Source: Pseudodesulfovibrio piezophilus C1TLV30
GTDB taxonomy: Bacteria; Desulfobacterota; Desulfovibrionia; Desulfovibrionales; Desulfovibrionaceae
Direction of reading: 5' to 3'
DNA length: 32,000 nucleotides
Assembly: GCF_000341895.1 (NCBI RefSeq)
Contig: NC_020409.1
Span: 930,001 to 962,000 of the forward strand
Part shown: positions 6,297 to 32,000 of the stretch, in pieces
Position numbering within the stretch: the first letter of the stretch is position 1
Layout of the letters: every line of letters begins with the position of its first letter
The notes under the pieces: model-generated
Told to the model about the DNA's origin: nothing
Seen by the model: only the letters and a program-made list of their open reading frames with translations
Databases searched by the model: none
Position numbers and translations under genes: made by a program

Positions 6297-7319
6297 TTAC
6301 CCGACATTCTCCGTAAGCCCGGAACCGGAAAAGCGCAACGCCCCCTTGCCAAGAAGATCGTGAAGATGAACCATGCCGACCAGCACGCCATCGTCATTGA
6401 CCACAGGTAGAACGGTAATCTGGTTCTGCTCCATGACATCGAGCACCAGAGCCGAGGATTCACCGACATTCGCCCGCTTGGGAGAAAGAGTCATGACCTC
6501 ACCAATGGGGCGGGTAACGTCAAATGGCCCACAACAGACTTCCCGGCGAACATCTCCATCGGAAAGAACCCCTTTGAGAACCGTTTCGTCATCAACAATC
6601 GCGACAAGCCCAAGCCCCCCGGAATTCAAAACTTCCAGGGCACTGTGAAGCGAAGCATCCGAACCAACAACAGGCAGCCCTTCGCAATGCATGAGTTGAT
6701 CCACGCTGGATGCCAATCGCTGTCCCAGTGATCCACCGGGATGAAATTTCTTGAAATCATCTCGCCCAAAGGACTTCCATTCCATAAGGCAGACAGCCAA
6801 AGCATCGCCCACAGCCAACTGTGCCGTGGTTGATGACGTCGGAGCCAGACCAATCAGACACGCCTCACGCGGGACTGCGACCTCGATGACAATATCACTG
6901 AGTCTGGCCATATCCGAAGTGGTGTGAGCAGTCATGCAGATGATCGTGACACCAAGTGATTTCAAAGTCGGAAGAATCGCGTTCAATTCATCCGTACCAC
7001 CTGAATTGGAAATAGCCAGGATAACATCCTCATCACGCAACATGCCCATATCGCCATGAGCACCTTCGACCGGATGCAGAAAAAAAGACGGTGTTCCCGT
7101 GCTGGACAACGTGGCTGCAATCTTGCGTCCCACCAGACCGGATTTCCCCACGCCGGTGACCACGACGCGTCCAGAACACCCGGCCATGGCCGTGACTGCT
7201 GTAGCAAAGGTTTCACTTAATTGTCCCTTGACAGCCTCAAGTCCCTCTATTTCGGTATCCAGAACCTCTCTGGCGATATTCACCCAGTCGGTTCTGCCGG
7301 AAGTGCATTCCATGTACAA
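6297..7319 (-). CDS. kdsD: KpsF/GutQ-family arabinose-5-phosphate isomerase (SIS domain + tandem CBS)
   Basis: VVVTGVGKSGLVGRKIAATLSSTGTPSFFLHPVEGAHGDMG and FHPGGSLG are followed by two CBS-like repeats. Confidence 0.88.
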   Translation of the reverse strand: MYMECTSGRTDWVNIAREVLDTEIEGLEAVKGQLSETFATAVTAMAGCSGRVVVTGVGKSGLVGRKIAATLSSTGTPSFFLHPVEGAHGDMGMLRDEDVILAISNSGGTDELNAILPTLKSLGVTIICMTAHTTSDMARLSDIVIEVAVPREACLIGLAPTSSTTAQLAVGDALAVCLMEWKSFGRDDFKKFHPGGSLGQRLASSVDQLMHCEGLPVVGSDASLHSALEVLNSGGLGLVAIVDDETVLKGVLSDGDVRREVCCGPFDVTRPIGEVMTLSPKRANVGESSALVLDVMEQNQITVLPVVNDDGVLVGMVHLHDLLGKGALRFSGSGLTENVG

Positions 7320-7328
7320 TAGCTCCGC

Positions 7329-8744
7329 TTAGCAAAATTCCTTGATAATACCAGGAGATGCTTCCAGGCAATCCTTCCCCATTCTGTCTGAAAGCGGGAT
7401 AGGATAATGCCCGTCAAAACAGGCAAGACACCATGCATCATTAGCAGTCACCGAATCGACCAACCCGGGAATGGTCAGGTAATGCAAGGATTCGATGCCC
7501 ATGAAACGTGCAATTTCTTCCGGCTCATGATTGGCAGCTATCAGCTCCCCTTTGGAAGAAAAATCAATCCCGTAAAAACAGGGGTGCTTGATTGCGGGGC
7601 AACTCACTCGCAAATGAATTTCCCTGGCACCGAGCTCGCGAAGTTTCTTGACACGAGCTCGAATTGTCGTTCCCCGGACAACAGAATCTTCCACAATAAT
7701 AATCCGTTTTCCCTGAACCATGGATTTAACCGGATTGAGCTTCACGCGAACCGAGAAATCCCGCATATCCTGAGAAGGCTGGATAAAAGTCCGACCCACG
7801 TAGTGGTTGCGAATCATGGCCAGTTCCAGAGGGACGCCGGATGCCTGGGAATACCCCACGGCCGCATAGTTGCCGGAATCGGGGAACGGCATGACAAAAT
7901 CGGCATCGACCGGCGCTTCCTTGGCAAGCATGGCCCCCATGGCTTTGCGACTCTCATAAACAACATCGCCGAAAACCGTGGAATCAGGACGGGCAAAGTA
8001 GATCAACTCAAAAATACACTGCCGTTTCGGCTCCGGCTCACAGTAGTGCGTCGAGGTCATCTTGTTCTTGTGAATAGTGACCATCTCTCCCGGATTGAGC
8101 GGACGAAGGTATTCTGCTTCGATGAGATCAAAGGCACATGTTTCAGAAGCAAACACATAGCTATCCCCGACACGTCCCAAAGCGAGCGGACGCACTCCAT
8201 TCGGATCTTTCAAAGCAATGAGTTTATCGTTGGCCATGACCAGAATGGAAAAAGCACCCCGAACCCGCTTGCACGCTTTGGCCACCGCCTCTTCTATGGT
8301 CTCGGATTGGTGGAGATATTTAATGATCAAGTGGGCAAAGACTTCGGTGTCCATGGTCGTTTGAAAGATGGACCCGTTCTCTTCAAGTTCTGCCCTGAGT
8401 TCAAAGGTGTTCACCAAATTGCCATTATGAGCCACAGCAAGACGCAAGTCGCCATGACGGACAAGAAACGGTTGTGCATTGCGAATAAGAGAAGCCCCGG
8501 TTGTAGAGTACCGGATATGTCCCATGGCAATTTCACCACGTAATTCCTTGCCTAGGTGACGTTCGTTAAAAACATCTGCCACCAACCCCATACCTTTTTG
8601 TTCACGGATTTTCTCTCCGTCCCAGGTGACAATGCCCGCAGACTCCTGTCCGCGGTGCTGGAGGGCATAAAGCCCAAAATAGGTCATCCTGGCGGCTTCT
8701 TTATTGCCGTAGATTCCGAAAAGTCCGCAATACTCTTTTTTCAT
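7329..8744 (-). CDS. purF: Amidophosphoribosyltransferase
   Basis: N-terminal MKKEYCGLFGIYG (Ntn Cys after a short propeptide), the PRTase core, and C-terminal Cys residues typical of the Fe-S type (CPAIKHPCFYGID, CLACFDGHYP). Confidence 0.95.
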   Translation of the reverse strand: MKKEYCGLFGIYGNKEAARMTYFGLYALQHRGQESAGIVTWDGEKIREQKGMGLVADVFNERHLGKELRGEIAMGHIRYSTTGASLIRNAQPFLVRHGDLRLAVAHNGNLVNTFELRAELEENGSIFQTTMDTEVFAHLIIKYLHQSETIEEAVAKACKRVRGAFSILVMANDKLIALKDPNGVRPLALGRVGDSYVFASETCAFDLIEAEYLRPLNPGEMVTIHKNKMTSTHYCEPEPKRQCIFELIYFARPDSTVFGDVVYESRKAMGAMLAKEAPVDADFVMPFPDSGNYAAVGYSQASGVPLELAMIRNHYVGRTFIQPSQDMRDFSVRVKLNPVKSMVQGKRIIIVEDSVVRGTTIRARVKKLRELGAREIHLRVSCPAIKHPCFYGIDFSSKGELIAANHEPEEIARFMGIESLHYLTIPGLVDSVTANDAWCLACFDGHYPIPLSDRMGKDCLEASPGIIKEFC

Positions 8745-19758: not shown

Positions 19759-20640
19759 CTATAATTGAAATTTTTCCCCTTCTCTCGCCATATCAAAATC
19801 CACACCGCACGTATTCCATTGCTTGCACAACCTGTCAAAAATAGCATCAACTTCTGAATCTGACCGTGATGTTTCATGGTGAGTAAGAAAGGTTTTTCCC
19901 ACTCCCGCTCTTCTCGCCAATTCCAAGGTTTTCTCAAAAGTGGAATGGCCCCATCCTTGCTTGGTACGATATTCTTCCTCCGTATACTGGGCGTCAGCGA
20001 TGAAAACATCAACCCCCTGAAGACAGTCTTCTAAAGCCTGACAACGCTCACTGACAACTTCCTCATACTCTTCATACCCATCGTCATCCGGCTGGTATAT
20101 ATTGAAATGAGGTTCATGATCGCCCGTGAAAAAAATCGTTTTCCCTTCGCACTTGATCTTGCAGCCAAAATTCATGGCAGGATGATTCATCAGGTGAGTT
20201 GAAACCGTGGCAAAGCCAAGATCCACAACGTGACCGTCCGTCAAAGTTTCATAAACGATATCAGCTTGCAACTCTACCACTCGTACAGGAAAATGAGGGT
20301 ACGCCATCTGCCTGGACAACACCGTTTCTATGCCCGTCATGGCGACAGGATCCGGGGGACCGTAAATAGCCACCTTGTTGCCGGGTTTGAACAGAGGGAG
20401 GAAAAATGGCGCTCCCTGAATGTGATCCCAATGAGTATGTGAAATGAAAAGGTGACAATCCAACAAATCTCTCGGCGCCAACTCCATACCGAGTTCACGG
20501 ATACCTGTTCCGGCATCCAAGATAATGAGTTCATCATTCTCAGTACGAATTTCTATACAGGTTGTATTCCCCCCGTATTTGACGGTATCTGGCCCGGGAG
20601 CGGGGAGAGAGCCACGCGTTCCCCAAAAACGAAACCGCAT
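19759..20640 (-). CDS. MBL-fold metallo-hydrolase
   Basis: MRFRFWGTRGSLP..., LDAGTG, and the HTHWDH metal-binding motif. The start overlaps the upstream stop (TGATG). Confidence 0.85.
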   Translation of the reverse strand: MRFRFWGTRGSLPAPGPDTVKYGGNTTCIEIRTENDELIILDAGTGIRELGMELAPRDLLDCHLFISHTHWDHIQGAPFFLPLFKPGNKVAIYGPPDPVAMTGIETVLSRQMAYPHFPVRVVELQADIVYETLTDGHVVDLGFATVSTHLMNHPAMNFGCKIKCEGKTIFFTGDHEPHFNIYQPDDDGYEEYEEVVSERCQALEDCLQGVDVFIADAQYTEEEYRTKQGWGHSTFEKTLELARRAGVGKTFLTHHETSRSDSEVDAIFDRLCKQWNTCGVDFDMAREGEKFQL

Positions 20641-21500
20641 CAGTCCGCCTCCCCGAGCTTAATGAAAATCCGAGCATTCTCAACTTCTTCATCCAGATTC
20701 GGCAATTCAGCGATCAATCCCTCCAGATCAAGAGAGAATCGATCCTGAATGGACCTGGGCAGCGGTTGTATATTGTAATCACCTGCTGATCCGAATGCGA
20801 GTTTTTTACTAATCTGATCCGCCGCAAAAACACAATCCACCAGTTGAGAAGGTTCGCCAACCGTCGGTGAATGATGACGAGATATTGCATCTATCAAATC
20901 CAAGGGCAAATTCCATTTTTCCGCAAGCATAGCCCCTATCTCAGCATGAGAGACGCCAACAACGGCCATTTCCTCGATTCCAAGAATTGAATGGTTTTCA
21001 GCTAACTGCCTGGCAACCTGAGCAAATTCCTTTGGCATGGACAAAGCAAAAACAACCTTGCCAATATCATGCAACAACCCGGCTGCAAAATAATCAGCAG
21101 CTTCATCTCTGGAAACACCGAGCATGGTGCCCAACATCCGGGTTGCGGCAGCTACGGCCAGCGAATGGAGCCAAAATGCTCCCATATCCAACCCTGCTTT
21201 ATTCGACTTGGGCATGGTTCCAACGGCAGCCAGTCCCAAAGCCATGTTTTTCAGGGTATTCAATCCCAAATAGACACTGGCATGATTGATGGATGTAATT
21301 TCCCGAGACAGACCAAAATATGGAGAATTGGCCAAACGAAGAATCTTCAAAGTAAAGACAGGGTCCTTCTTGATGACTTCCACCAACTCTTTCTGTGAAC
21401 AGTTGATATCATTGGAAAGCTTAAGAACCAAATGGACACTTTTCGGAAAAGCGGGCATCTGTTCCACAGCATTCAAAAATTTATCTTTCACGTCCGGCAT
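20640..21500 (-). CDS. HDOD-domain signalling protein
   Basis: Trimmed to ATG 21500 (MPDVKDKFLNAVEQMPAFPKSVHLVLKL...). LRLANSPYFGLSREITSINHASVYLGLNTLKN is a classic HDOD pattern. HDIGK is present. Confidence 0.85.
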   Translation of the reverse strand: MPDVKDKFLNAVEQMPAFPKSVHLVLKLSNDINCSQKELVEVIKKDPVFTLKILRLANSPYFGLSREITSINHASVYLGLNTLKNMALGLAAVGTMPKSNKAGLDMGAFWLHSLAVAAATRMLGTMLGVSRDEAADYFAAGLLHDIGKVVFALSMPKEFAQVARQLAENHSILGIEEMAVVGVSHAEIGAMLAEKWNLPLDLIDAISRHHSPTVGEPSQLVDCVFAADQISKKLAFGSAGDYNIQPLPRSIQDRFSLDLEGLIAELPNLDEEVENARIFIKLGEAD

Positions 21501-21585
21501 GAGTCTCTCATGATGTAGTATCCCTTCCCCTATCCACGATGCGTGAACTCGACAAGCCGATAAAATGGGGATTCCAATGCTCCTC

Positions 21586-21613
21586 ATATTACAGAAATAT
21601 TCATATTTGGCAA
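21586..21613 (-). promoter_or_regulatory. Candidate sigma70-type promoter for the HDOD-MBL(-RR) genes
   Basis: The minus strand reads TTGCCA-16 nt-TAATAT, located between the comEC stop (21619) and the HDOD start (21500). Confidence 0.35.
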
Positions 21614-21618
21614 GGAGA

Positions 21619-24030
21619 TCAAGGCCTAGCAACGCGGAGAGAGAAGTCCCTGCCCCGTCCCCATTGAGCAGTTACCTGACCATATCTACCTGTCGCAAAA
21701 ACAGGGACACCGACAGCTTTCACCACCTCTTTATGCGGGAAACCGTATTGATTGAGATACCCGCTTGAACACACGGCGCAGAAAGGTGAAATTTTCCCAT
21801 AAAATGCAGGAACCAGACTCGACTTACTTCCATGATGAGGCAGGACCAAAATATCAGCCCTCAAATCCACCCCAGAGTCCATCATAGCCTTGATACCGTT
21901 CTCTTCCACATCACCGGGAATGAGAGCCAAAGAATGTTCTCGCCGCATAAGACGGAGGACTAGGGATCGTTCATTGGCATGGCGATTCTTGTAGTCTAAT
22001 GCAGGGTGCAGGACATCCAAAGAGATATCACGTCCAAGAGCAAGACGCTGTCCAGCATGAAGTGTCACAGGAACAAGCTTTTTTTTCTCAAATGCAGCTC
22101 TGAGCCTTTTCCCGGTCCGCCCACGCGGCAGAGTGCCATTGCCGTAAAAAGCACCAACATCAAACCGGGAAAGTATAAATGGCAAACCATGGCTATGATC
22201 CACATCAGGATGGCTCATGAAAACCCCATCCAACCGGGGCGGTCTGCCAAATGTCAATGTTGGCGCAACGACAGCTTCACCAAAATCAAAATGGCGCGAT
22301 CCCGCACCTCCGTCGATGAGCCAACGGTGTCCGCCCGGAACAGACACAACCACCGCTTGTCCTTGTCCGACATCAAGAAGCGTCACCTTGACCACATCCT
22401 CTGTATCAGCCGCCATGATTGCCACATGAGGCCAGACCATGAACAGAAACCCAACAGCGGTCAATACTGGAAAAAAGCGTCTCTTGGACCAAGCGACCAG
22501 AGCAAGTAACAACAGAAGGCACACACCGAGCATCTCCGGCCATAAAGGTCTGAGGACTGAAAAGACGGGTGTCAGACCATACTCTCCTGCCATGGCAAGC
22601 ACCGAAAGCAGCCAATTCATGACAATCGAACTCCCCGCGAGCAAGCTCCCTCCGACCGGAACAGTCCAGCTAAATGTGCACAAAAGGGTTCCGAGAATAC
22701 CCATGGGCATCACGATAAATCCAAGAGTTGGTAGCCAAATGACATTGAAAAGTATGTTTGGACAGAACGAACCGAATGTCCGAGAGACCAGCGGCAAAAG
22801 AGCAGTCGTGGCGCAGAAACTCACTCCAAGCACACCGGCCGCCCAGAGAAAAGGTGTCAGGCCCCAATGACTGCCCGCCATGAAGAATCGTCGTATGACA
22901 GGGTACATCAAACCAATGCCAGCAACGGCCAGGGCAGACATTTGAAGGGACAGATCATAAAGAGCGAGGGGATACGCAAAAATGATCACGACGAGCGCAA
23001 AAAAAAGCCCATCCAGGAGAACTCGCCCGCGCCCCTGAAGGAGCAAAGCGCCCCAAAATCCAAACATGATCGCCGACCGTGTCAGCGAAGGAGAAGGCTG
23101 TCCCAACCAAGCATAGGCTGCGACCAGAGGAGCCGCGCAGAAAACCGCCAATTTCGGCCGGGGAATTAGGAGCAGCAGATCGGGAGAGAGCCGACCAATG
23201 AGCCATGCCAAGGCGAATCCCATTGCAGCTACAAACCCAACGTGAAGACCTGATAATGCCAATGTATGAGCAAGTCCGGCTGCACGCATTGCAGCGGATG
23301 TCTCCAATTCTATTTGAGATCGATCACCAGTGACAAGAGCCAAAACCATAGCTCCGCCCTGGGTGTCGGGAATGTGTTCCGCCACGAGATGGCGCACCCG
23401 CACTTTCAAGGCACCAAGAGACGAGCGAACACCATCCCCCCACACCAACTCACGCCCTTGGCCCACACGCCATGCTCGCCAAAAGACACCCTGCCTCTGC
23501 CAGTACCACGAAAAATCCCAGGCACCGGGATTGGTGAATCCGTGAAGAGGTACCACTCGCATGAACGCGGTGACGGTCTGCCCTTCCAATGGTGTCACAT
23601 CCGGCTTTCGCCAAGTCCAAGCCAATTTGCCGGGCAACCCTTCTTTCCGCTCCCCGACCTGGCAGGTTATTTCTCGCAAAAGAATCCTGAATCGCCCATC
23701 AATGCGCGGCTCAACCCGATCCACCGTTCCCGTTACCCTGACGGCAGTACGAGATGTCATCCAGATAGGAATCTCAACCGGAGCAGGCGTCCACAGACTA
23801 GTGTAACCAAAGCCACACCCGGCGCATAATAGAAAAAGGAGAAAAGGCACTCGTGAAGCCCGACCGCGCAAAGAAAAATCGACAAAGAGAAGAAGTCCTA
23901 ACGCCGTCAGAGACGGCACCGGATATTTGAAAGAAAATATCCCTGCGCAGAAAGCAAGAAAAAGACTCTGCCATGGAAGCAGCCCCGCAAGAGGCGGGAC
24001 CATGTCCGGTCGGGAACAGCGATCACACAC
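21619..24030 (-). CDS. comEC: ComEC/Rec2-family DNA internalisation protein (DUF4131 + competence channel + C-terminal MBL domain)
   Basis: Polytopic membrane core with C-terminal LLDVGQGQAVVV...SHPDVDHSHGL. GTG start at 24030 is preceded by GGGAGGGGAGA. Confidence 0.88.
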   Translation of the reverse strand: MCDRCSRPDMVPPLAGLLPWQSLFLAFCAGIFSFKYPVPSLTALGLLLFVDFSLRGRASRVPFLLFLLCAGCGFGYTSLWTPAPVEIPIWMTSRTAVRVTGTVDRVEPRIDGRFRILLREITCQVGERKEGLPGKLAWTWRKPDVTPLEGQTVTAFMRVVPLHGFTNPGAWDFSWYWQRQGVFWRAWRVGQGRELVWGDGVRSSLGALKVRVRHLVAEHIPDTQGGAMVLALVTGDRSQIELETSAAMRAAGLAHTLALSGLHVGFVAAMGFALAWLIGRLSPDLLLLIPRPKLAVFCAAPLVAAYAWLGQPSPSLTRSAIMFGFWGALLLQGRGRVLLDGLFFALVVIIFAYPLALYDLSLQMSALAVAGIGLMYPVIRRFFMAGSHWGLTPFLWAAGVLGVSFCATTALLPLVSRTFGSFCPNILFNVIWLPTLGFIVMPMGILGTLLCTFSWTVPVGGSLLAGSSIVMNWLLSVLAMAGEYGLTPVFSVLRPLWPEMLGVCLLLLLALVAWSKRRFFPVLTAVGFLFMVWPHVAIMAADTEDVVKVTLLDVGQGQAVVVSVPGGHRWLIDGGAGSRHFDFGEAVVAPTLTFGRPPRLDGVFMSHPDVDHSHGLPFILSRFDVGAFYGNGTLPRGRTGKRLRAAFEKKKLVPVTLHAGQRLALGRDISLDVLHPALDYKNRHANERSLVLRLMRREHSLALIPGDVEENGIKAMMDSGVDLRADILVLPHHGSKSSLVPAFYGKISPFCAVCSSGYLNQYGFPHKEVVKAVGVPVFATGRYGQVTAQWGRGRDFSLRVARP

Positions 24031-24048
24031 TCTCCCCTCCCATATGGT

Positions 24049-25038
24049 TTAGATCAGCCGCAGCTGATCATCGTCTTCCAGACGCAACTTAAGGTGCTGG
24101 TATGCTTTAGCAGTAGCTACCCGGCCGCGAGGGGTACGTTTCAAGAAACCGCACTGAATAAGATATGGTTCATAAATGTCCTCAATGGTCCGAACTTCCT
24201 CGGCACAGGCGGCGGCAATTGTCTTGAGGCCAACCGGCCCACCATTGAAATTCTCCACCATCAACGTGAGTATTTTCCTATCCATATTGTCCAGCCCATG
24301 CTGATCCACATCCAACCGTTCCAATGAGGATTCAGCAATCTCACGAGTGACGACGCCACTTCCGTGCACCAACGCATAATCTCGCACCCTGCGCAGCAAA
24401 CGGTTGGCAATGCGAGGCGTTCCCCGAGCACGGCGGCCAATGGCGAGAGCCCCCTCTTCCTCCACCTCCACATCAATGATCCCGGCTGCCCGCTGAACAA
24501 TACGACCAAGCTCTTCAGGAGAATAGAATTCAATGCGAAAGATGCAACCAAAACGATCACGAAGAGGGGAAGTCAGCAGGCCGAGTCTCGTGGTAGCGCC
24601 AACGAGGGTAAACGGCTCCAGATCGAGCTTGACAGTTCGAGCACCCGGCCCGGACCCGATTACCAGATCGATCTGAAAATCTTCCATGGCCGGATATAAG
24701 ACTTCTTCTACCGTGGCGGGCATGCGGTGAATTTCATCTATAAACAGGATATCACCTCTGTCCAGATTGGTCAGGATCGCGGCAAGGTCACCGGAACGTT
24801 CAATGACGGGACCGGACGTTGAGACCATATTTACACCCAATTCACTGGCCATTATCCGTGCCAGAGTCGTCTTGCCCAGCCCCGGATTGCCATAGAAAAG
24901 TGTGTGATCAAGAGGACGACCTCGCTCCGTAGCAGCCCGGATAAAAACATCTAGATTGCACCGCAGGTCTTCCTGACCAATGAAATCACTCAGTCTTTTA
25001 GGCCTGACATTTTCTTCGGGAAGAGTGCACTTACTCAT
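24049..25038 (-). CDS. ruvB: Holliday junction branch-migration helicase RuvB
   Basis: [14 protein letters not shown], Walker [10 protein letters not shown], and DEIHR. Confidence 0.96.
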
Positions 25039-25652
25039 GAACGTGCCGCGTTGATTTTCTTGAGAACCGCACGAATAGCACCAGCGGCTTCAAGGTCGGG
25101 TTCTTCATCAAAAACAGCCATGATCATGGGACGAACTTCGTCTTCGGAATACCCCAGCCCCTTCAGCCCGGCGAGGGCATCAAGGTATTCCCCCTGCGGC
25201 CCCTGAGGGGCTCCAGCAGAATGAACCCTCGCTGTGGTCTGGGTCAGCTTATTCACTTTATCCTTGAGATTCCACAATATCTGCTTGGCCGATTTCGGGC
25301 CAATACCAGGGACTCGCGACAACATGTCCACATCCTCGCGAAACGCGATTTCGCGCAAATGGTCGGCGTCGTACATGGACAGGATCGCGAGCGCCTTCTT
25401 TGGGCCCAGCTTATCAATAGAAATGAGCGTACGGAATAAATCCAGGTCATCGGCCTCTAAAAAACCAAATAGATCAATCGCTTTTTCCGCCACCTGTGTG
25501 TGAATAAACAGTGCAATGTCACCGCCTTGTCCGGGCAGCTTGGCCACCACAGATGTCGGTGCAGCAACCTCATATCCCACACCTCCCGGCGTCAGAACAA
25601 CCAGACCCTGTTCATCCGCAGAAAGGAGCGACCCCTGTAAATATCCGATCAT
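25035..25652 (-). CDS. ruvA: Holliday junction DNA-binding protein RuvA
   Basis: Trimmed to [10 protein letters not shown]... (ATG 25652, GGAGG SD). HhH motifs [12 protein letters not shown]. The stop overlaps the ruvB start. Confidence 0.92.
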
Positions 25653-25847
25653 GCAAAGCCTCCGTTGCACGGTTATTAGCCCATTACCGGACGCAATTCA
25701 AAGGGAATGGTTGTCAACTTTTCGCACCGGAGTCAATACCGGCACAGCTGAACGATAAAAGGAAAGAAAGAAAATGACTCTATAACGAATGAAAAAGCAT
25801 TCTGGCACTGGTAGAAAAGACTTGCCTTGAGTCCCACAAGAGAACCA

Positions 25848-26354
25848 TCAGCATCCGGTGAGCCTCCGCATCCGGCGCTCATTCAGATGACAAATGGCAA
25901 TAGCCAATGCGTCTGAAGCATCTTCCGCCCAATCTGGTTTTTTGACACCCAAACAATGCGCGACCATAAAAGCGACCTGATCCTTGGGCGCATTCCCCAA
26001 TCCGACAAGGTTCTTTTTAACCTTGGTCGGTTCATACTCCGAAACAGGAATATTATTGATGGCGCAGGCTGCCATTGCAGCTCCCCTCGCCTGTCCCAGC
26101 TTCAGGGCAGACGAGGGGTTTTTTGAAACAAAAACATTCTCAATAGCGGCTTCCACCGGCCCATGAGTCCGAATGAGAATTTGCAGCCGATCAAAGATGA
26201 CACCCAATCGGGTCGCCATATCCTTTTTGACCGGGGTACGAATAGTGCCGGTCTCAATAAGAGAGGTTTGTCCTGATACTTCCCGGACAATGCCATACCC
26301 GGTCACACGAGAGCCAGGGTCCAGTCCTATGACGACCAATCCGCGACCTGCCAC
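25848..26354 (-). CDS. ruvC: Crossover junction endodeoxyribonuclease RuvC
   Basis: VIGLDPGSRVTGYGIV and the C-terminal DASDALAIAICH. Confidence 0.94.
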   Translation of the reverse strand: MAGRGLVVIGLDPGSRVTGYGIVREVSGQTSLIETGTIRTPVKKDMATRLGVIFDRLQILIRTHGPVEAAIENVFVSKNPSSALKLGQARGAAMAACAINNIPVSEYEPTKVKKNLVGLGNAPKDQVAFMVAHCLGVKKPDWAEDASDALAIAICHLNERRMRRLTGC

Positions 26355-26357
26355 GAA

Positions 26358-27101
26358 TTACTCTTCCTCGAACAGTTCGTCAGGAAAATCTGCGTTAAGA
26401 TAAACCTTCTGTACATCGTCATTATCTTCCAGCACATCGAACAATGCCATGACCTTTTTACCAGTCGCAACATCCACAGGGACGAGATTCTCTGGAACCT
26501 GACCAAACTCGGCAGATTGATATTCCATCTCAGCATCAACAAATGCCTGCTGTACAGCCATGAAATCTCCAGGAGCAGTCAGCACGGTGAAGGTGTCACC
26601 ATCATCCACGATATCCTCGGCTCCAGCTTCCAGGCCAACCAGCATCAGATCGTCTTCGGTAAACTTTTCTTTCTCGAAAACGATGATGCCCTTTTTGTTG
26701 AACATATACGCCACAGCTCCAGCTTCAGCCATATTGCCATTGTGCTTGGTAAAGGCGTGACGAATCTCCGCAACCACACGGTTTTTATTATCCGTGGCAA
26801 CATCGACCAACATGGCCACACCGCCAGGGCCGTACCCTTCGTACAGAATCTCCATGATATCACCACCGGCCAATTCGCCAGTGCCCTTCTTGATGGCATT
26901 GTCGATCTTGTCCTTGGGCAGGTTAACCGCTTTTGCCTTCTGAATGGCAAGACGGAGACCAGAGTTATCTTCCGGGTTACCGCCGCCAGCCTTGGCCGCG
27001 AGGATAATGTCCTTGGCCGCCTTGGTGAAAAATTTGGCTTTTTTAGCGTCCTGGCGCCCTTTGCGATGCTGGATATTAGCCCATTTACTATGCCCTGCCA
27101 T
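26358..27101 (-). CDS. yebC: YebC/PmpR-family DNA-binding regulator
   Basis: MAGHSKWANIQHRKGRQDAKKAKFFTK is the family signature N-terminus. Confidence 0.94.
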   Translation of the reverse strand: MAGHSKWANIQHRKGRQDAKKAKFFTKAAKDIILAAKAGGGNPEDNSGLRLAIQKAKAVNLPKDKIDNAIKKGTGELAGGDIMEILYEGYGPGGVAMLVDVATDNKNRVVAEIRHAFTKHNGNMAEAGAVAYMFNKKGIIVFEKEKFTEDDLMLVGLEAGAEDIVDDGDTFTVLTAPGDFMAVQQAFVDAEMEYQSAEFGQVPENLVPVDVATGKKVMALFDVLEDNDDVQKVYLNADFPDELFEEE

Positions 27102-27155
27102 ACTTCCTCCTGAGTAGTATAAAAAAATATCCTGTTTTATTCTGAGCCGTCGACT

Positions 27156-27755
27156 TTATCCGTCCGCGCCCTTAAAGCCAAGGGCGACGATAAATATCTC
27201 CTTGCTTTCAGAACGCGAACTGTACGGTTTAAAATTCTTTATCTTGCCAAAATAGGGACGCAAAGCATCCCGAAAATCCTTGGTGTCGCCACTCTCAAAA
27301 ATCTTGACCGTAAAATGACCGCCCGTTTTGAGATACTTGAGTGCAACTTCAAAAGCCCGCTCACACAACTCCAGACTGTTTGCCTGATCGGCAAATTTAA
27401 TTCCGGTTGTCTTGGGGGCCATATCACTGATAATAAGGTCAAAAGGCCGCAACGGTTCCATTGCTTCCAATAATTCGGGAGCATCGGAAAAAACATCTGC
27501 CTGCAAAAAAGTAATATTTTCAGGAAAGCTATGTTTCGTCTCCTGAATATCGACACCAAGCACATGCCCGGTCTTACCAACCCGCTCTCCAGCAAACTGA
27601 GTCCACGACCCAGGAGCTGCTCCGAGGTCGAGAACGGTCTGGCCCGGCTTGAAAAGCTTGAACCGCTTGTCCATCTCCTTGAGCTTGTAGACGGATCGGG
27701 CGGCGTAGTTTTCCTTTTTGGCCCTTTTAAAGTACTTATCCTGATATTGTTTCAT
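27156..27755 (-). CDS. rlmE: 23S rRNA (U2552 2'-O) methyltransferase RlmE/FtsJ
   Basis: [22 protein letters not shown] and the SAM motif [13 protein letters not shown]. Confidence 0.92.
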
Positions 27756-27758
27756 GGC

Positions 27759-27785
27759 AACGCTCCTTGATCGGCGTGGAGCGTT
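27759..27785 (-). promoter_or_regulatory. Hairpin that includes the rlmE Shine-Dalgarno sequence
   Basis: Minus-strand RNA AACGCTCC-11 nt-GGAGCGTT-gcc-ATG. The 8-bp stem buries the GGAG 3 nt before the start codon. Confidence 0.3.
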
Positions 27786-27824
27786 TCCCTACCCGAATAT
27801 ACCGAAAAAGCCAAGTGCAGTCAC

Positions 27825-29336
27825 GTGACCAGACCTGTCAGAATCCGCATAATAAATGAGTTGGGCAACCTACAGACCCTTCCCGATGGCCCGAATCAAT
27901 TCGAAGTAATCCCAGGTGCCAAAAATCTTATTTGCCTCGGTCTTGGTCCGGAACCAGCTGAAATTAAAAAATTATTCCCACAGTATACACACGCATACTT
28001 CATAGAATGCCCGACCATGCAATCGCAAATTCAATCATGGGACAAAAGGGTTCCATCCGGTTTTCTCCCATTAGACCCTCAACTTTTTACTCCAGAACTG
28101 GCGGCGCAGAGTACGATTATACGATATAGGCCAGGTCTCAAGGCCTTTCCGTCATTCTGGGCCCCTCTAACGGCACGGGTGGCTCTGGGCCATACGATCC
28201 TCACGCCTCAATCACAAATAGCCTGGCTCCCCTTCGCTGAAAACGATCTCCTGGTCAGAGAACTTCTCCATGCTTTGGAAGCCAGAGGGTATACTGTCCG
28301 CACCATCAATCAGGAGCACTTGGAACGCTCGCCAGGCACAGCTCTCCCCGCTTTCATGGAGCATGAGACTCCTGCGTTATTTCTTTCCGTCAACTTCAAG
28401 GGATTGGACCCCTTTGGGCTTGGCTTCAACATCCTGCGTGAAGCAGGTGTTAAAACAGGTATCTGGCTGGTGGATAATCCATTCAACATCCTCCCCTCAA
28501 TAAAGTCCGGTTTTTGGAAAGAAGTCCCTCTTTTCGTCACGGATCACACTTTTATAACTCCCCTCAAAAGAGCCGGAGCATCAGAAGTCACTCATCTCCC
28601 CCTTGCGGCCTGTCCTGAATTATTCTCTCAGCCCGGCCCCCTGCCGGATCACGGCAACGACCTGGAAAACAAACTTGTTTTTGTCGGCCGTTCTGAATTC
28701 CCCAGAAAACAGAAATTTTTTGCAGGATTAAAACCACCCAAAGCCCAGATGGAACAGGCTGTCTCAATGCTCAGTCGTGGGGAGCGTCCTCACTTCCACT
28801 GGTGGCATAAGCAAATCCCATCCCGCCCCTGGCCGGGCAATGAGATTCGAACAGTAGGGATAGGCGCAGAAGTGACCGGGCAACGGTGGAAGCTCGACTG
28901 CCTCACGGCAGCCGGGGAAGAGACAGTCATTTTCGGTGACGATAAATGGCGTCAATACTCAGGGATAACAAACGACATTCGCCGATTTCTCGATTACTAC
29001 GGAGCACTCCCCGCCGTGTACCACGCTGCAGGTGCGATACTCAACATCACGGGTATGCAACTCCCTGCCGGACTAACCCAGCGTCACTTTGATGTTTGGT
29101 GCGCTGGCGGCTTCCTCCTCACCGACGCCAACCCCGGTCTGACGATCTTTCCCGATTCGCTCACCACGCCCATTACATATAAGGTCACGGCAGATATCGG
29201 ACCACTTTTCACTACCTTTCAAAAGAATGACTCCGATAAAATCACTTTACAAGACGCCTGGAAAAAAGAAATCCAAGAGCACCATACCTATCACAACAGA
29301 CTTGAAACCCTCACTCAAGCTCTCGGGCTTCCCTGA
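27825..29336 (+). CDS. Hypothetical protein with a CgeB-like glycosyltransferase-fold C-terminus (DUF3880/Glyco_trans_1_2-like)
   Basis: 503-aa ORF with a GTG start and no clear SD. The C-terminal ILNITGMQLPAGLTQRHFDVWCAGGFLLTD resembles the N-x-R-x-FE-x-x-A-x-G-x-LL-x-D block of CgeB-type proteins. I do not recognise the N-terminal half. Confidence 0.6.
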   Translation: MTRPVRIRIINELGNLQTLPDGPNQFEVIPGAKNLICLGLGPEPAEIKKLFPQYTHAYFIECPTMQSQIQSWDKRVPSGFLPLDPQLFTPELAAQSTIIRYRPGLKAFPSFWAPLTARVALGHTILTPQSQIAWLPFAENDLLVRELLHALEARGYTVRTINQEHLERSPGTALPAFMEHETPALFLSVNFKGLDPFGLGFNILREAGVKTGIWLVDNPFNILPSIKSGFWKEVPLFVTDHTFITPLKRAGASEVTHLPLAACPELFSQPGPLPDHGNDLENKLVFVGRSEFPRKQKFFAGLKPPKAQMEQAVSMLSRGERPHFHWWHKQIPSRPWPGNEIRTVGIGAEVTGQRWKLDCLTAAGEETVIFGDDKWRQYSGITNDIRRFLDYYGALPAVYHAAGAILNITGMQLPAGLTQRHFDVWCAGGFLLTDANPGLTIFPDSLTTPITYKVTADIGPLFTTFQKNDSDKITLQDAWKKEIQEHHTYHNRLETLTQALGLP

Positions 29337-29427
29337 CTTTCCTGTAATAGATTCCGTCAAATAACTCTCCACACAATGAAAAAAGGTTGTGCCACTGCAC
29401 AAAAAGGACTAATGATTTTCACTCCAT

Positions 29428-29503
29428 TGGGGACGTAGCTCAGCTGGGAGAGCGCTGCCTTCGCAAGGCAGAAGTCGAGAGTTCAAATCTCTTCGTCTCC
29501 ACC
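29428..29503 (+). tRNA. tRNA-Ala (anticodon CGC), CCA encoded
   Basis: GGGGACGTAGCTCAGCTGGGAGAGCGCTGCCTTCGCAAGGCAGAAGTCGAGAGTTCAAATCTCTTCGTCTCCACCA folds as a cloverleaf by hand. It has the G3:U70 Ala identity pair and the anticodon loop TTCGCAA. Confidence 0.95.
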
Positions 29504-29511
29504 AAGAAAGA

Positions 29512-29547
29512 CAAAGGGTTTCAAGTGATTACTTGAAACCCTTTTTT
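29512..29547 (+). terminator. Rho-independent terminator after tRNA-Ala
   Basis: GGGTTTCAAGT-gatt-ACTTGAAACCC (11-bp stem) is followed by TTTTTTT. Confidence 0.75.
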
Positions 29548-29952
29548 TATTTACCGCAATAAACACCACATTCCCACCACTTGCCCCCCTCATTTCAGAC
29601 CCCAAAAGTCGACATCAGATAAAAAAAAGACAACTCTATTAACATGATCCTATTGGTGGATTATTTAGCAAACAGATGAAAATCAAGGGCAGAATCTCTC
29701 ACTAGTTGGGATTCACCAATCCCGTGAAGATCACAAAGATCTTTGACATAATGAGGCCGACGCCGAACAGGACGACACTGTCGCATGATCACAACACATG
29801 TACAGACATCTACGCATCTAAGACGCCCTGTGAGTCGGCCGGACAGTCAGAAAGAGGACAAACTTTTAGCTACCCCTATTCATAATGACCTTGTGTAGAG
29901 AGTAACGGTTATGAGCAATCGCGCTCAGGCCAATAACACAAGGAGTCATCTT

Positions 29953-30120
29953 ATGACTATTGAACTAGATGTTCGATTTAGATTTTCATCTGCTGGAAGA
30001 CCGCTGACGAATGAAGTGTGCGTGAAACATGAAACCAGTTTCACTGAAACTGCGATCCAAATAGGATCCATGTTAATCCCGCTGTTGGCTAGCGCCATCA
30101 ACATTTTTTTCGGAAGCTAA
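29953..30120 (+). CDS. Small hypothetical protein (55 aa; 69 aa if ATG 29911 is used) with a C-terminal hydrophobic helix
   Basis: AGGAG lies 7 nt before ATG 29953. The product is MTIELDVRFRFSSAGRPLTNEVCVKHETSFTETAIQIGSMLIPLLASAINIFFGS. It ends 42 nt before the RT start. I recognise no homology. Confidence 0.35.
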   Translation: MTIELDVRFRFSSAGRPLTNEVCVKHETSFTETAIQIGSMLIPLLASAINIFFGS

Positions 30121-30162
30121 CTCCTTCTGATTTTTTTTAACTGCTTCACTTGCTGGTGATTA

Positions 30163-30769
30163 ATGCAAAAGCACAAATACCCGCTCTCTCAATCCCCCCT
30201 GTATAAACTGAGAACTAAAAAGAAACTTGCGCTTCTTTTAGGCCAATCTCTTGACGACTTACAAAAACTAGCCTCAAGTAACGACAACTACAAAGTATAT
30301 ACACTTTCTCCAAAGGGTAAGCTGGCCCACCCATACTTTTTAAAAAAAGAACGATTGGTTCAAGAAGTTCGACCACATCTAAAAAGTGTTCACGAACGAA
30401 TTTTATCCCTATTAAAATGCGTAAAAACTTCTGATTATTTACACTCTGCGACTAAGGGAAAATCGCTACAAAACGAACGCGGAAACCCATCTCCCAAACA
30501 AAGCCGCCAATAAAGTAGATATTAAAAGTTTTTATGAATCGGTAACATTTGGCCGCATCTACCATTTTTTCAACAGCACGCTAAAGTGCAACGCAGATGT
30601 CGCACATCTTCTTACAAGATTATGTGCTTTCAAAAGGACTTTACCCACAGGGTCATGTATTAGCCCACTACTTTCATTCTGGACAAATGTTGGCATGTTT
30701 GACCAGCTTTCCACTTTTAGCAAATCACACAACCTTGCCATGACCTTATACGTCGACGACGTAACTTAG
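30163..30769 (+). pseudogene. Defence-type (non-intron, UG/Abi/retron-like) reverse transcriptase, frameshifted and 3'-truncated
   Basis: Frame 1 (30163-30513) gives MQKHKYPLSQSPLYKLRTKKKLALLLGQS...YLHSATKGKS. After one extra base near 30466, the next frame reads YKTNAETHLPNKAANKVDIKSFYESV...RTLPTGSCISPLLSFW...LAMTLYVDDVT*. These correspond to RT motif A (DIKSFY), motif B (LPTGSxISPLLS) and motif C (YVDD). The reading frame stops at 30769, at the IS3 end. Confidence 0.75.
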
Positions 30770-30828
30770 AAGTGGGTTCACTTTATCGGACCACTGAGCG
30801 GCGAATTTAAGGTGGACAGTTTTACGTG

Positions 30829-31994
30829 TTACGCCGCCTTGTGGGTCCATCCCAGAGGGGGTACCCCCTCTGGGATGGGACCGCTTTGATATATCTCCAT
30901 CGGCTTGCGTCCGTCAAAGGTCTTATGAGGACGCCGATTATTGTAGAAGTTAAACCACCAGGCCAAGGCACTCCGCAGCTCACTTCCTGTCTCCAGTTCC
31001 CGCAAGTAGACACATTCGTATTTCAAAGACTTCCAGAGTCGTTCGATCATGACGTTATCCATCCAGCGTCCTCGGCCATCCATTGAAATGCGGATGCCAG
31101 CATCCCGCAGAGTCTTTGTGAATTCATAGCTGGTGAACTGGCTCCCCTGGTCTGTGTTGAATATCTCAGGTTCTCCATAACGGTTGATCGCATCCTCCAA
31201 AGCTACGACACAAAAGTCGGCCTCCATCGTATTCGACAAACGCCACGACAATACTGCCCGGCTATGCCAATCCATGATTGCCACGAGATACAAGAAGCCT
31301 CGTTTCATCGGAATGTAAGTAATGTCGGTACACCAAACTTGATTTGGCTTTGTGATCTTCATGTTCCGCAACAAATACGGATATATTTTGTGCTGTGGAT
31401 GAGGATCACTCGTCCTCGGTTTTTGGTAAATCGCCATCAAGCCCATCTTGCGCATAAGTCGTCTCACACGACCACGGCCAACCAGATGCCCTTCATCCCG
31501 CAGAATGTTGCGCATCTGGCGTGAGCCGAAAAATGGTAGCTCCATGAACAACTCGTCGATGCGTTTCATCAACTCCAAGTTATACGATGATTCGCCAATC
31601 GGCTGATAATAGTATGTTGAGCGTTGCAGTTTGAGGATTCTGCATTGTCGCCGGACGCTGAGTTGTGGATGCTCTTTGTCGACGACTTCACGCCTTCGCT
31701 CGCAGCTCAGATTTTGGCGAAGGCTTGTTGCAAAAAATCCTTCTCGATCAGAAGTTGGCCGATCTTAGCGTGCAGATCCTTGATATGTGCATCGTCCATT
31801 TGCTGGCTCTTCTCTGCCTTGCCAGAAAATGACGCGACAATACCTTCTTTGGCTTGTCGTTTCCACGTGGATATCTGGTTGGTGTGAACTCCATACTTGC
31901 TGGCCAGCTCGGAAAGTGTGTGCTCGCCAGACAAAGCGTCGAGGGCTACACGGGCTTTGAATTCAGCAGTAAATCTTCTTCTCTTCTTGGACAT
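30829..31994 (-). CDS. IS3-family transposase OrfAB, a transframe product made by -1 ribosomal slippage at 31731-31737. The DDE catalytic part is orfB.
   Basis: The -1 frame after TTTTTTG reads [73 protein letters not shown]..., the canonical OrfB N-terminus. The DDE residues sit in [16 protein letters not shown] and [12 protein letters not shown]. Confidence 0.85.
30847..30878. repeat. 32-bp perfect palindrome inside the 3' end of IS3 orfB
   Basis: CCATCCCAGAGGGGGT|ACCCCCTCTGGGATGG, with every position complementary by hand check. It codes for ..[10 protein letters not shown].. and ends 16 nt before the stop codon. Confidence 0.9.
31692..31737 (-). promoter_or_regulatory. Programmed -1 frameshift signal of the IS3 element: slippery heptamer plus downstream stem-loop
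   Basis: On the minus strand, T TTT TTG (31737-31731) is in register with orfA codons D-F-L. A 6-nt spacer follows. Then GCCTTCGC (31724-31717) pairs with GCGAAGGC (31699-31692). The 17-nt loop contains the orfA stop codon. Confidence 0.65.
31707..31994 (-). CDS. IS3-family transposase OrfA (HTH protein)
   Basis: [47 protein letters not shown] is a typical IS3 OrfA HTH, followed by a leucine-zipper-like tail. Confidence 0.88.
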   Translation of the reverse strand: MSKKRRRFTAEFKARVALDALSGEHTLSELASKYGVHTNQISTWKRQAKEGIVASFSGKAEKSQQMDDAHIKDLHAKIGQLLIEKDFLQQAFAKI

Positions 31995-32000
31995 CGAAAA

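Follow-up and report, generated by a model that had tools for sequence, protein, structure and literature searches.

The 32,000-nt stretch of Pseudodesulfovibrio piezophilus C1TLV30 DNA considered here (contig NC_020409.1, positions 930,001 to 962,000; hereafter the window) contains a broken reverse transcriptase (RT) gene. With a probability of roughly 0.87, the locus can be read from its sequence as a Type VI retron (an anti-phage system of three parts) that has become a pseudogene directly downstream of a tRNA-Ala gene, its RT gene having been interrupted first by a one-base frameshift and then by an insertion sequence (IS) of the IS3 family. The relevant features, in window coordinates, are as follows.

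30163..30465, plus strand: 5′ part of the RT gene, codons 1-101 in the original frame (open reading frame (ORF) translation, homologue alignments).
30465..30466, plus strand: a single inserted base, shifting the frame by +1, that separates the Ser101 codon from that of Tyr102 (DNA aligned against six intact homologues).
30466..30767, plus strand: middle part of the RT gene in the shifted (+1) frame, YKTNAETH...YVDDVT (translation, PADLOC RT_VI match).
30768..32000, minus strand: IS3-family element, its right end 61 nt past the orfB stop, running to the end of the window (NCBIfam, Pfam, frame analysis).

The called ORF, 30163..30513, encodes 116 aa, beginning MQKHKYPLSQSPLYKLRTKKKLALLLG and in frame as far as KGKS, after which it continues out of frame to 30513. 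The shifted frame then supplies, in order, the motifs YKTNAETH, DIKSFYES, LPTGSCISPLLS and YVDDVT*, thereby spanning the finger and palm motifs as far as the catalytic YVDD, and the TAG stop at 30767-30769 arises from the RT/IS junction. Once repaired, the protein aligns to its homologues gap-free through LHSATKGKSYKTNAE, with YVDD and all invariant RT columns present. The closest intact homologues, each of 317 aa, were found in Pseudodesulfovibrio indicus (77% identity; intact module at ~1,974,500-1,976,000 of CP014206), Pseudodesulfovibrio sp. zrk46 (74%) and several metagenome sequences. Two much closer sister contigs were also available: L001 (JGI metagenome contig 3300009848 Ga0118742_100042), found by exact look-up of the 116-aa ORF and 99.89% identical to window 20163-30767 (12 mismatches, 0 gaps), and L096 (JGI 3300009849 Ga0118705_100139), which derives from a different sample and is 99.8% identical to the window up to 30767.

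Comparison of the conceptually repaired product of some 200 aa with profiles of the various RT clades, a check proposed when the fragment was originally predicted from its sequence, showed that the 201-aa in-window RT matched PADLOC RT_VI (E 4.8e-63, profile positions 1-182 of 279). The RT completed from L001 matched the same model (PDLC02952) with 273.6 bits (E 4.2e-82, profile positions 1-272 of 279), thus leading by ~137 bits the second-best PADLOC model, RT_III-A (136.2 bits, E 2.8e-40), and the top 25 PADLOC matches were to retron RT models in 25 of 25 cases. NCBIfam returned retron families, each under its own cut-off, plus a weak match to Drt3a (22 bits, E 6e-5, vs a cut-off of 200), while Pfam RVT_1 gave a weak generic match (27.7 bits), also under its cut-off. 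Rfam searches, permissive on 29300-30900 and at the gathering threshold on the whole window, detected the tRNA only, with no group II intron or other RNA. Because the profile matches favour retron RTs and Rfam shows no intron RNA, membership of the UG/DRT (unknown group/defence-associated RT), Abi (abortive infection), diversity-generating retroelement (DGR) and group II classes was rejected and, judged by profile scores as opposed to a tree with reference RTs, the window RT is a Type VI retron RT.

The original prediction of a bacterial defence-type RT, distinct from group II intron and DGR enzymes, was therefore well founded, and from the retron, Abi or UG/DRT kinds that it had named, the first was upheld and the other two were not. 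Its view that the subgroup could not be assigned, and might represent a poorly characterised clade, gave way to the characterised Type VI. Equally, the RT proved not to be the stand-alone gene then supposed, since a structured non-coding RNA (ncRNA) and a 55-codon small protein (SP) gene lie directly upstream (29673-30140), within the 650 nt that separate the tRNA-Ala gene from the RT. These upstream features were compared across a clade of eight lineages (the window, L002, L005, L006, L007, L093, L095 and L098).

29639..29667, plus strand: candidate sigma-70-type promoter, TTAACA, 17 nt, TATTTA (relatives' alignments).
29673..30140, plus strand: retron non-coding/hybrid RNA, ~460 nt (RNAalifold, alignments, nhmmer).
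29687-29723 and 29724-29747, plus strand: two short conserved (invariant) hairpins (consensus fold).
29755-29840, plus strand: long stem with variable centre, msd-like (consensus fold).
29845-29856, plus strand: inverted repeat 1 (IR1), AGUCAGAAAGAG, forming a 12-bp long-range helix with IR2.
29863-29999, plus strand: riboregulator arm (consensus fold).
29953..30120, plus strand: SP gene, 55 codons, MTIELDVRFRFSSAGRPLTNEVCVKHETSFTETAIQIGSMLIPLLASAINIFFGS, intact in the window, with an AAGGAG ribosome binding site (RBS) 7 nt upstream.
30121..30138, plus strand: inverted repeat 2 (IR2), CUCCUUCUGAUU (30121-30132, right after the SP stop), and a U8 run (terminator-like site 30110-30130 plus T8).

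The ~280 nt upstream of the SP ORF were more conserved in DNA than the SP ORF itself. When seven clade sequences were folded with RNAalifold, the consensus comprised 105 pairs with 93.2% of cells paired, and compensatory changes were recorded in 23 pairs; shuffling of columns gave 9.8 ± 2.2 (none of 500 reached 23), and slid controls 3-8. Within the riboregulator arm, CCUUGUG (29889-29895) pairs with CACAAGG of the SP RBS (29937-29943), and CCAUA (29880-29884) with UAUGG at the SP start codon (29952-29956). The locus thus exhibits the RNA attributes of a Type VI retron, namely a structured hybrid RNA, sequestration of the RBS and AUG, and an IR1-IR2 pair flanking the SP coding sequence; IR2 and its U-run are the probable 3′ end of the hybrid RNA. 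The IR1:IR2 helix is invariant in six other lineages. The window has a single mismatch in it, shared with the sister contigs, where C30124 in IR2 stands for an otherwise invariant U and gives an A.C mismatch with IR1 (pair 235:532, broken in the window only among the aligned sequences). L096 has a second mismatch, A29854 in IR1, at a site that the other six lineages leave unchanged.

An nhmmer profile of the hybrid RNA matched (E 6e-10) the region upstream of a more distant RT, 43% identical, in a Mu-like prophage (L009, GCA_000504305.1), where IR1:IR2 reads GUCAGAGAGGG : CCCUCUCUGAC, corresponding to two compensatory A-U to G-C changes. No Rfam family matched the hybrid RNA, the ncRNA core pattern gave 0 matches in a metagenome-contig scan, and two viral-contig scans were also empty. 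The candidate promoter, which is taken from sequence to drive the retron RNA, has the -35 box TTAACA in the window (29639-29644), TTGACA in L002, L005, L006 and L007, and TTGACC in L095. Three small ORFs within 29661-29898 had no match in Pfam, PADLOC or NCBIfam and were not conserved as ORFs in the relatives.

A further perfect complement of 12 nt was observed between CAGAUGAAAAUC (29673-29684, the presumed RNA 5′ end) and GAUUUUCAUCUG (29981-29992, SP codons 10-14). This candidate helix, P1, occurs in all seven sequences, 88% paired and with compensation at two positions. Because it crosses both helix 7 and IR1:IR2, it would be a pseudoknot or an alternative conformer; it was not separable from shuffles and is kept as a lead only.

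The SP ORF is embedded in the hybrid RNA, with 43 nt between its end and the RT start, and is open in all eight clade lineages (54-60 codons), with indels that are without exception multiples of 3, and its C-terminal half is strongly hydrophobic (Kyte-Doolittle (KD) values 1.6-2.06). The locus consequently possesses the upstream small accessory protein with a hydrophobic C-terminal region that is expected of Type VI, in the same position and of the same size as the SP of Retron-Vpa2 (55 aa), and by analogy the protein is presumed to be the toxic effector. No match to it was found in Pfam, PADLOC or NCBIfam, and SP clusters numbered only 7 in 5.8 billion.

By way of contrast, the Cro/C1 helix-turn-helix (HTH) protein by which Type VI is defined (cluster 2_1, ~91-110 aa, present in ~78% of entries under the classification of Mestre et al. 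2020; 10.64898/2026.04.27.721009) has no counterpart at the RT start in any of the eight clade lineages, where the SP stop and RT start are separated by just 39-52 nt, and nothing HTH-like was detected in the flanks of the clade loci. A genome-contig scan yielded a census of 81 RT relatives at 30-43% identity, Pseudodesulfovibrio genomes not being among them, and in 70 of these an HTH_3 ORF of ~100 aa abuts or overlaps the RT start. L009 likewise displays the canonical order of ncRNA, SP, HTH_3 and RT and, because it combines the shared RNA core with an HTH gene, the simplest reading is that the clade has lost the latter. In the HTH-less clade, repression of the SP may be exerted by RNA alone. 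Novelty is confined to the clade's HTH-less SP-RT sub-architecture, the window feature being a decayed member of a known defence family. Four census loci from Pseudoalteromonas and Catenovulum (L024, L025, L030 and L032, ~3772-4038) were also observed to have no recognisable HTH_3, and in these an 88-aa ORF without a Pfam match overlaps the RT start, possibly encoding a divergent HTH or a partner that replaces it.

Turning to the lesions themselves, the sole extra base in the window relative to the six intact homologues (AAATC-g-CTAC vs AAATC-CTAC; G30465 or C30466) confirmed the frame break originally placed near 30466. It lies outside any homopolymer and is identical in L001 and L096, which are independent assemblies of other samples, and random assembly error is therefore unlikely. 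Programmed frameshifting was considered and rejected: the six homologues are in frame at this position, and the closest other lineage, L006 (ENA ERZ25042267 contig_104, 7020-8681; RT 81% identical), shifts at another site. There an independent 1-nt insertion (AACGCgCTGAC), 34 nt upstream of that in the window, interrupts an RT that is otherwise intact, next to an intact SP and RNA and beside tRNA-Pro(UGG) as opposed to tRNA-Ala. The RT is intact, at 317 aa, in six of the eight sampled lineages.

The three closely related sequences constitute three haplotypes, L096 having the frameshift only, L001 the frameshift plus a C-terminal deletion, and the window the frameshift plus the IS3-family element. 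The deletion in L001, absent from L096, removes one base 30 nt before the stop (ATGCCC-TGC) and replaces the last ten residues. Since the frameshift is common to all three, it is the oldest event.

The junction with the IS at 30767/30768, after codon 201 and two codons beyond YVDD, bore out the original prediction of an IS3-family insertion at that point. L001 and L096 are empty of the IS and, past 30767, continue with the RT (FSGQKLSKE...; in L001, FSGQKLSKETSFNIDKIIASYGYKPHKQ...), serving both as empty-site controls and as the source of the missing 3′ part; the remainder of the window RT would be expected beyond the IS, starting near ...TTTTCTGGTCAAAAACTATC. The window accordingly has no uninterrupted RT ORF through finger, palm and thumb, 116 C-terminal codons being absent. 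Displacement of the thumb, as previously proposed, is upheld, but the accompanying suggestion of a missing C-terminal effector domain is not, as the intact 317-aa homologues end ~116 codons after the IS site with no extra domain.

The element itself lies on the minus strand, with orfA at 31994..31707 and orfB, in the -1 frame, extending down to 30829. A U UUU UUG slippery heptamer is present at 31737-31731, from which the -1 frame is open into orfB. The orfA product matched Pfam HTH_Tnp_1, and that of orfB matched NCBIfam NF033516 (261 bits, cut-off 160) together with Pfam rve, rve_3 and HTH_21, so that an HTH-bearing orfA and a DDE (rve) orfB in 0/-1 frames reproduce the two-ORF plan of the IS3 family. 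Its visible end, reading (T)AGAAGTGGG, is unlike the common TG... terminus of that family; with a target of TTTTT, its exact position is uncertain by 1-2 nt (30766-30768). The window truncates the element 5 nt upstream of the orfA ATG, leaving ~1.23 kb visible; the left end, against which the inverted repeats and the 3-5 bp target duplication of an IS3 element would be matched, falls past base 32000. No second copy of the IS end was found within the window, an IS-end pattern scan of metagenome contigs gave 0 matches, and an exact-protein look-up of orfA returned no record; those of the 116-aa ORF, YebC and SP led only to sister contigs that lack the IS.

A near-perfect palindrome of ~20 bp, GGUCCCAUCCCAGAGGGGGUACCCCCUCUGGGAUGGACC, was noted at 30840-30885 (minus strand) in the last codons of the orfB transposase, where it might serve the IS as a terminator or as a hairpin with a regulatory role. 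It gave rise to a spurious Rfam mir-611 match, which was rejected, along with one to RNA-OUT, as a chance match to palindromes.

The function that such a locus would have had can be proposed from two characterised systems. In Retron-Vpa2 of Vibrio parahaemolyticus, a hybrid RNA of ~470 nt comprises msr-msd plus the coding sequence of a toxic 55-aa SP (Zhang et al., 10.1101/2025.10.22.683967), the SP RBS and AUG residing in stem-loops. Phage recombination or anti-RecBCD proteins act as triggers that let RT-made multicopy single-stranded DNA (msDNA) accumulate, and this build-up, which occurs only on such triggers, is needed to derepress SP translation; the HTH protein represses reverse transcription, and a catalytically dead RT ends defence and is not toxic (10.1101/2025.10.22.683967). 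In Retron-Sen3, the ncRNA lies within ~280 nt of the SP start, with a long variable stem-loop, a sequestered RBS and IR1-IR2 flanking the SP gene (Garcia-Rodriguez et al., 10.64898/2026.04.27.721009). There the HTH protein is the antitoxin of the SP, and the HTH-SP toxin-antitoxin pair is reported to work without RT and ncRNA; known SP clusters share no sequence similarity with each other (10.64898/2026.04.27.721009).

By homology with both, a promoter ~30 nt upstream of 29673 would, in intact relatives, drive a hybrid RNA of ~460 nt carrying an msr-msd-like region to be reverse-transcribed as template, together with the sequence that codes for a hydrophobic 55-aa SP, of which the RBS and start codon would be locked in a hairpin and the gene bracketed by the IR1:IR2 helix, with the 317-aa RT encoded 43 nt downstream. 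As in Retron-Vpa2, msDNA accumulation would then unlock translation of a toxin that stops the infected cell. In the window, the frameshift after codon 101 and the subsequent IS3 split after codon 201, which removed the thumb region, mean that the RT cannot be made; without it no msDNA and hence no defence would be expected, and, dead RT being non-toxic in Vpa2, the loss should cost nothing. As the sister contigs show, decay proceeded from the frameshift to haplotype-specific events: L001 lost 1 nt near the stop, the window gained the IS3 element, and otherwise invariant RNA positions underwent point changes.

Several observations weigh against this account. The IS junction was observed in the window alone, the other end of the element and any target duplication lying beyond base 32000. 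A strict promoter scan did not report the candidate at 29639..29667. A hidden Markov model of the clade SPs detected no homologue among ORFs upstream of the 81 distant Type VI RTs, and the AlphaFold model of the SP was of low confidence (pLDDT, predicted local distance difference test, 58.5), too low for a fold search; given these two results, assignment of a toxin role depends on position, size, the hydrophobic C-terminus and RNA context. Conserved 7-nt direct repeats, which are proposed to mediate msDNA-riboregulator pairing in Vpa2, were not found in the clade RNA when repeats of at least 6 nt were sought. Finally, with no HTH gene in the clade, the Vpa2 and Sen3 mechanisms may not transfer fully.

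The alternatives concern principally the reason for, and the consequence of, the RT lesions. Selected rather than neutral inactivation would follow if an active HTH-less retron were costly, through autoimmunity or a leaky SP, so that its RT was repeatedly knocked out. Two of the eight sampled lineages are indeed broken, by the independent insertions 34 nt apart in the window lineage and L006, each retaining an intact SP ORF, and the clade is without the HTH protein that restrains the system in Vpa2 and Sen3. However, a dead RT in Vpa2 keeps the toxin repressed and it is the live enzyme that arms it, which implies that RT loss removes defence and not any expressed toxicity. Moreover, invariant RNA positions and the -35 box are mutating as well, as if constraint had relaxed generally; statistics cannot be based on just two events; and with an SP gene of just 165 nt its intactness is weak evidence. 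Selection of this kind is thus considered unlikely. Rather than targeted silencing, the haplotype-specific RT lesions, the changed invariant RNA positions and the altered -35 box favour erosion that was neutral once the first frameshift had occurred, and the sequence of the window lineage fits ordinary decay after loss of function. Of the two explanations offered with the original prediction for the double hit, simple decay is accordingly the one sustained, by the shared old frameshift, the differing small lesions and the mutated RNA, selection against an active copy having gained no specific support. The two frameshifts in two lineages remain a curiosity that keeps recurrent inactivation on the table.

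A slightly less probable alternative, also regarded as doubtful, is that the hybrid RNA and SP form a working module independent of the RT, such as a cis-repressed toxin akin to a type I toxin-antitoxin system, with only the RT dispensable. Both lineages with a broken RT retain an intact SP ORF and RBS and most of the RNA fold, and the reported independence of the Sen3 HTH-SP pair from RT and ncRNA offers a parallel. Set against these points are the IR1:IR2 mismatches of the window and L096 in a helix otherwise invariant, the weakened -35 hexamer, the lack of an antitoxin protein, and the apparently recent loss of the RT (haplotypes >99.6% identical), by virtue of which intactness would be expected anyway.

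It is highly improbable that the frameshift, the IS junction or both are sequencing or assembly artefacts concealing an intact cellular gene. Chimeric joins classically occur at IS copies and the RT/IS junction was seen in the window only, but the frameshift recurs unchanged in three assemblies, each of a different sample; the sequence breaks precisely where an IS could plausibly end, 61 nt past the orfB stop, as a genuine insertion would; and the sister contigs differ here in other real ways (an integrase island and a 1-nt deletion). That the RT belongs to some other class (UG/DRT, Abi, DGR or group II intron), as the weak RVT_1 and Drt3a matches might hint, can be dismissed given the exclusively retron top PADLOC models and the lead of RT_VI, the Rfam result, the hallmark HTH gene in most of the relatives and the retron-type ncRNA with SP upstream.

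In the setting of the locus, two further features were assigned.

29429..29504, plus strand: tRNA-Ala(CGC) (ARAGORN; Rfam tRNA, 67.5 bits).
29513..29544, plus strand: intrinsic terminator of the tRNA gene, a 14-bp stem followed by a T-run, kept in L005 (terminator scan).

The retron module lies directly 3′ of the tRNA gene, with this terminator between the tRNA and the retron transcript, and a position next to a tRNA gene is found in most lineages. The window, L005 and L007 have tRNA-Ala ahead of the module and L006 has tRNA-Pro; in L002 and L096 it is a 3′ fragment of tRNA-Ala. A gene order of RuvABC, YebC, FtsJ, glycosyltransferase, tRNA-Ala, SP and RT is common to the window, zrk46 and L007, the YebC proteins of the window and zrk46 being 82% identical. 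At 41.3%, the G+C content of the module (window 29640-30767) is below the ~50% of the flanking chromosome and IS, a composition consistent with horizontal acquisition.

The last 26 nt of the tRNA-Ala gene (29479-29504) correspond to an att-like repeat in the integrase-island haplotype L096, of which homology with the window begins at 29479, after the integrase. Islands with a tyrosine integrase were observed between tRNA-Ala and retron both in L096 (1-9373) and in P. indicus CP014206 (L002, 1-5163), in each case leaving the 26-nt tRNA 3′ repeat beside the retron; that in L096 additionally encodes a large NACHT-domain protein, which may be another defence gene. Downstream of the RT, an rve/rve_3 transposase was recorded 186 nt past the RT stop in L007 (6140-6814) and L008, and a transposase-like ORF starting MEFVSINDLVPQNHLLRK just after the RT in L001 (11033-11121), the contig ending there. 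On this sequence evidence, IS elements and integrase islands have a hotspot at the tRNA-Ala locus.

Two neighbouring genes merit brief mention. Upstream of the tRNA, a glycosyltransferase-like ORF (Glyco_trans_1_2, 27825-29336) comprises 503 aa from a GTG start, but the gene calls give it 385 aa in the sister contigs and 505-509 aa in zrk46 and L007, and for this reason its start codon is uncertain in the window lineage. At 19759-20640 (minus strand), a 293-aa protein of metallo-beta-lactamase (MBL) fold (Lactamase_B_2), adjoining an HDOD/HD protein and ComEC, has a weak precomputed match to Anti-Pycsar Apyc1 and is probably a housekeeping MBL-fold hydrolase.

As regards annotation, what had been an unassignable, stand-alone RT fragment can now be traced to a defence system described in 2025-2026, of which it is a dead copy, and the fitting label for the locus is 'Type VI retron, RT pseudogene (frameshift + IS3), hybrid RNA and SP gene present', the more so as the RNA and SP parts escape Pfam, PADLOC and Rfam and both are easily missed by gene callers. 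The pseudogene itself is ordinary, and the three co-occurring haplotypes give a dated sequence of decay steps; for Type VI retrons the clade, by comparison, amounts to a natural experiment, its HTH gene being lost and yet six lineages keeping RT, SP and covarying RNA. If these six are active, RNA structure alone suffices for control of the toxin, and such RNA-only control, if true, would help to choose between the published translational and post-translational models. A wider proposal, advanced tentatively and thought unlikely to hold as a whole, is that the clade represents a minimal HTH-less Type VI retron of ~1.5 kb (hybrid RNA, SP and RT, usually at a tRNA 3′ end) with the toxin checked by RNA structure alone, that RNA and SP could outlive the RT as a cis-repressed toxin cassette, and that the RT frameshifts within 34 nt were selected.

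Comparison with the known systems indicates that the window locus fits, at the level of sequence, the RNA, SP and RT parts of the Vpa2 and Sen3 descriptions. With Retron-Vpa2 it shares a Type VI RT, a hybrid RNA of ~460-470 nt in which msr-msd-like stems precede the SP and the RBS and AUG are locked, inverted repeats that tie the 3′ end behind the SP to the RNA core, and a 55-aa SP with a hydrophobic C-terminus. It differs in that Vpa2 has an HTH gene between SP and RT, for which there is no equivalent in the clade, in the lack of SP sequence similarity, and in the dead RT and Desulfovibrionaceae-type host of the window. With the Retron-Sen3/cl2075 lineage of Type VI it shares an ncRNA within ~280 nt of the SP start, a variable stem-loop, the RBS stem and IR1-IR2; the order in Sen3 is SP-HTH-RT, with an HTH protein antitoxin and a 79-aa SP, whereas the window locus has the shorter SP and no HTH, and because of the latter, post-translational HTH-SP control cannot apply in the clade. 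The prophage-borne L009 resembles the window locus in its ncRNA core, compensated IR1:IR2, AAGGAG RBS and 56-codon SP ORF ending at the conserved GGCUAAC, followed by the RT, and is distinguished from it by a 103-aa HTH_3 gene overlapping the RT start, an unrelated SP sequence, and a location that is not adjacent to a tRNA gene.

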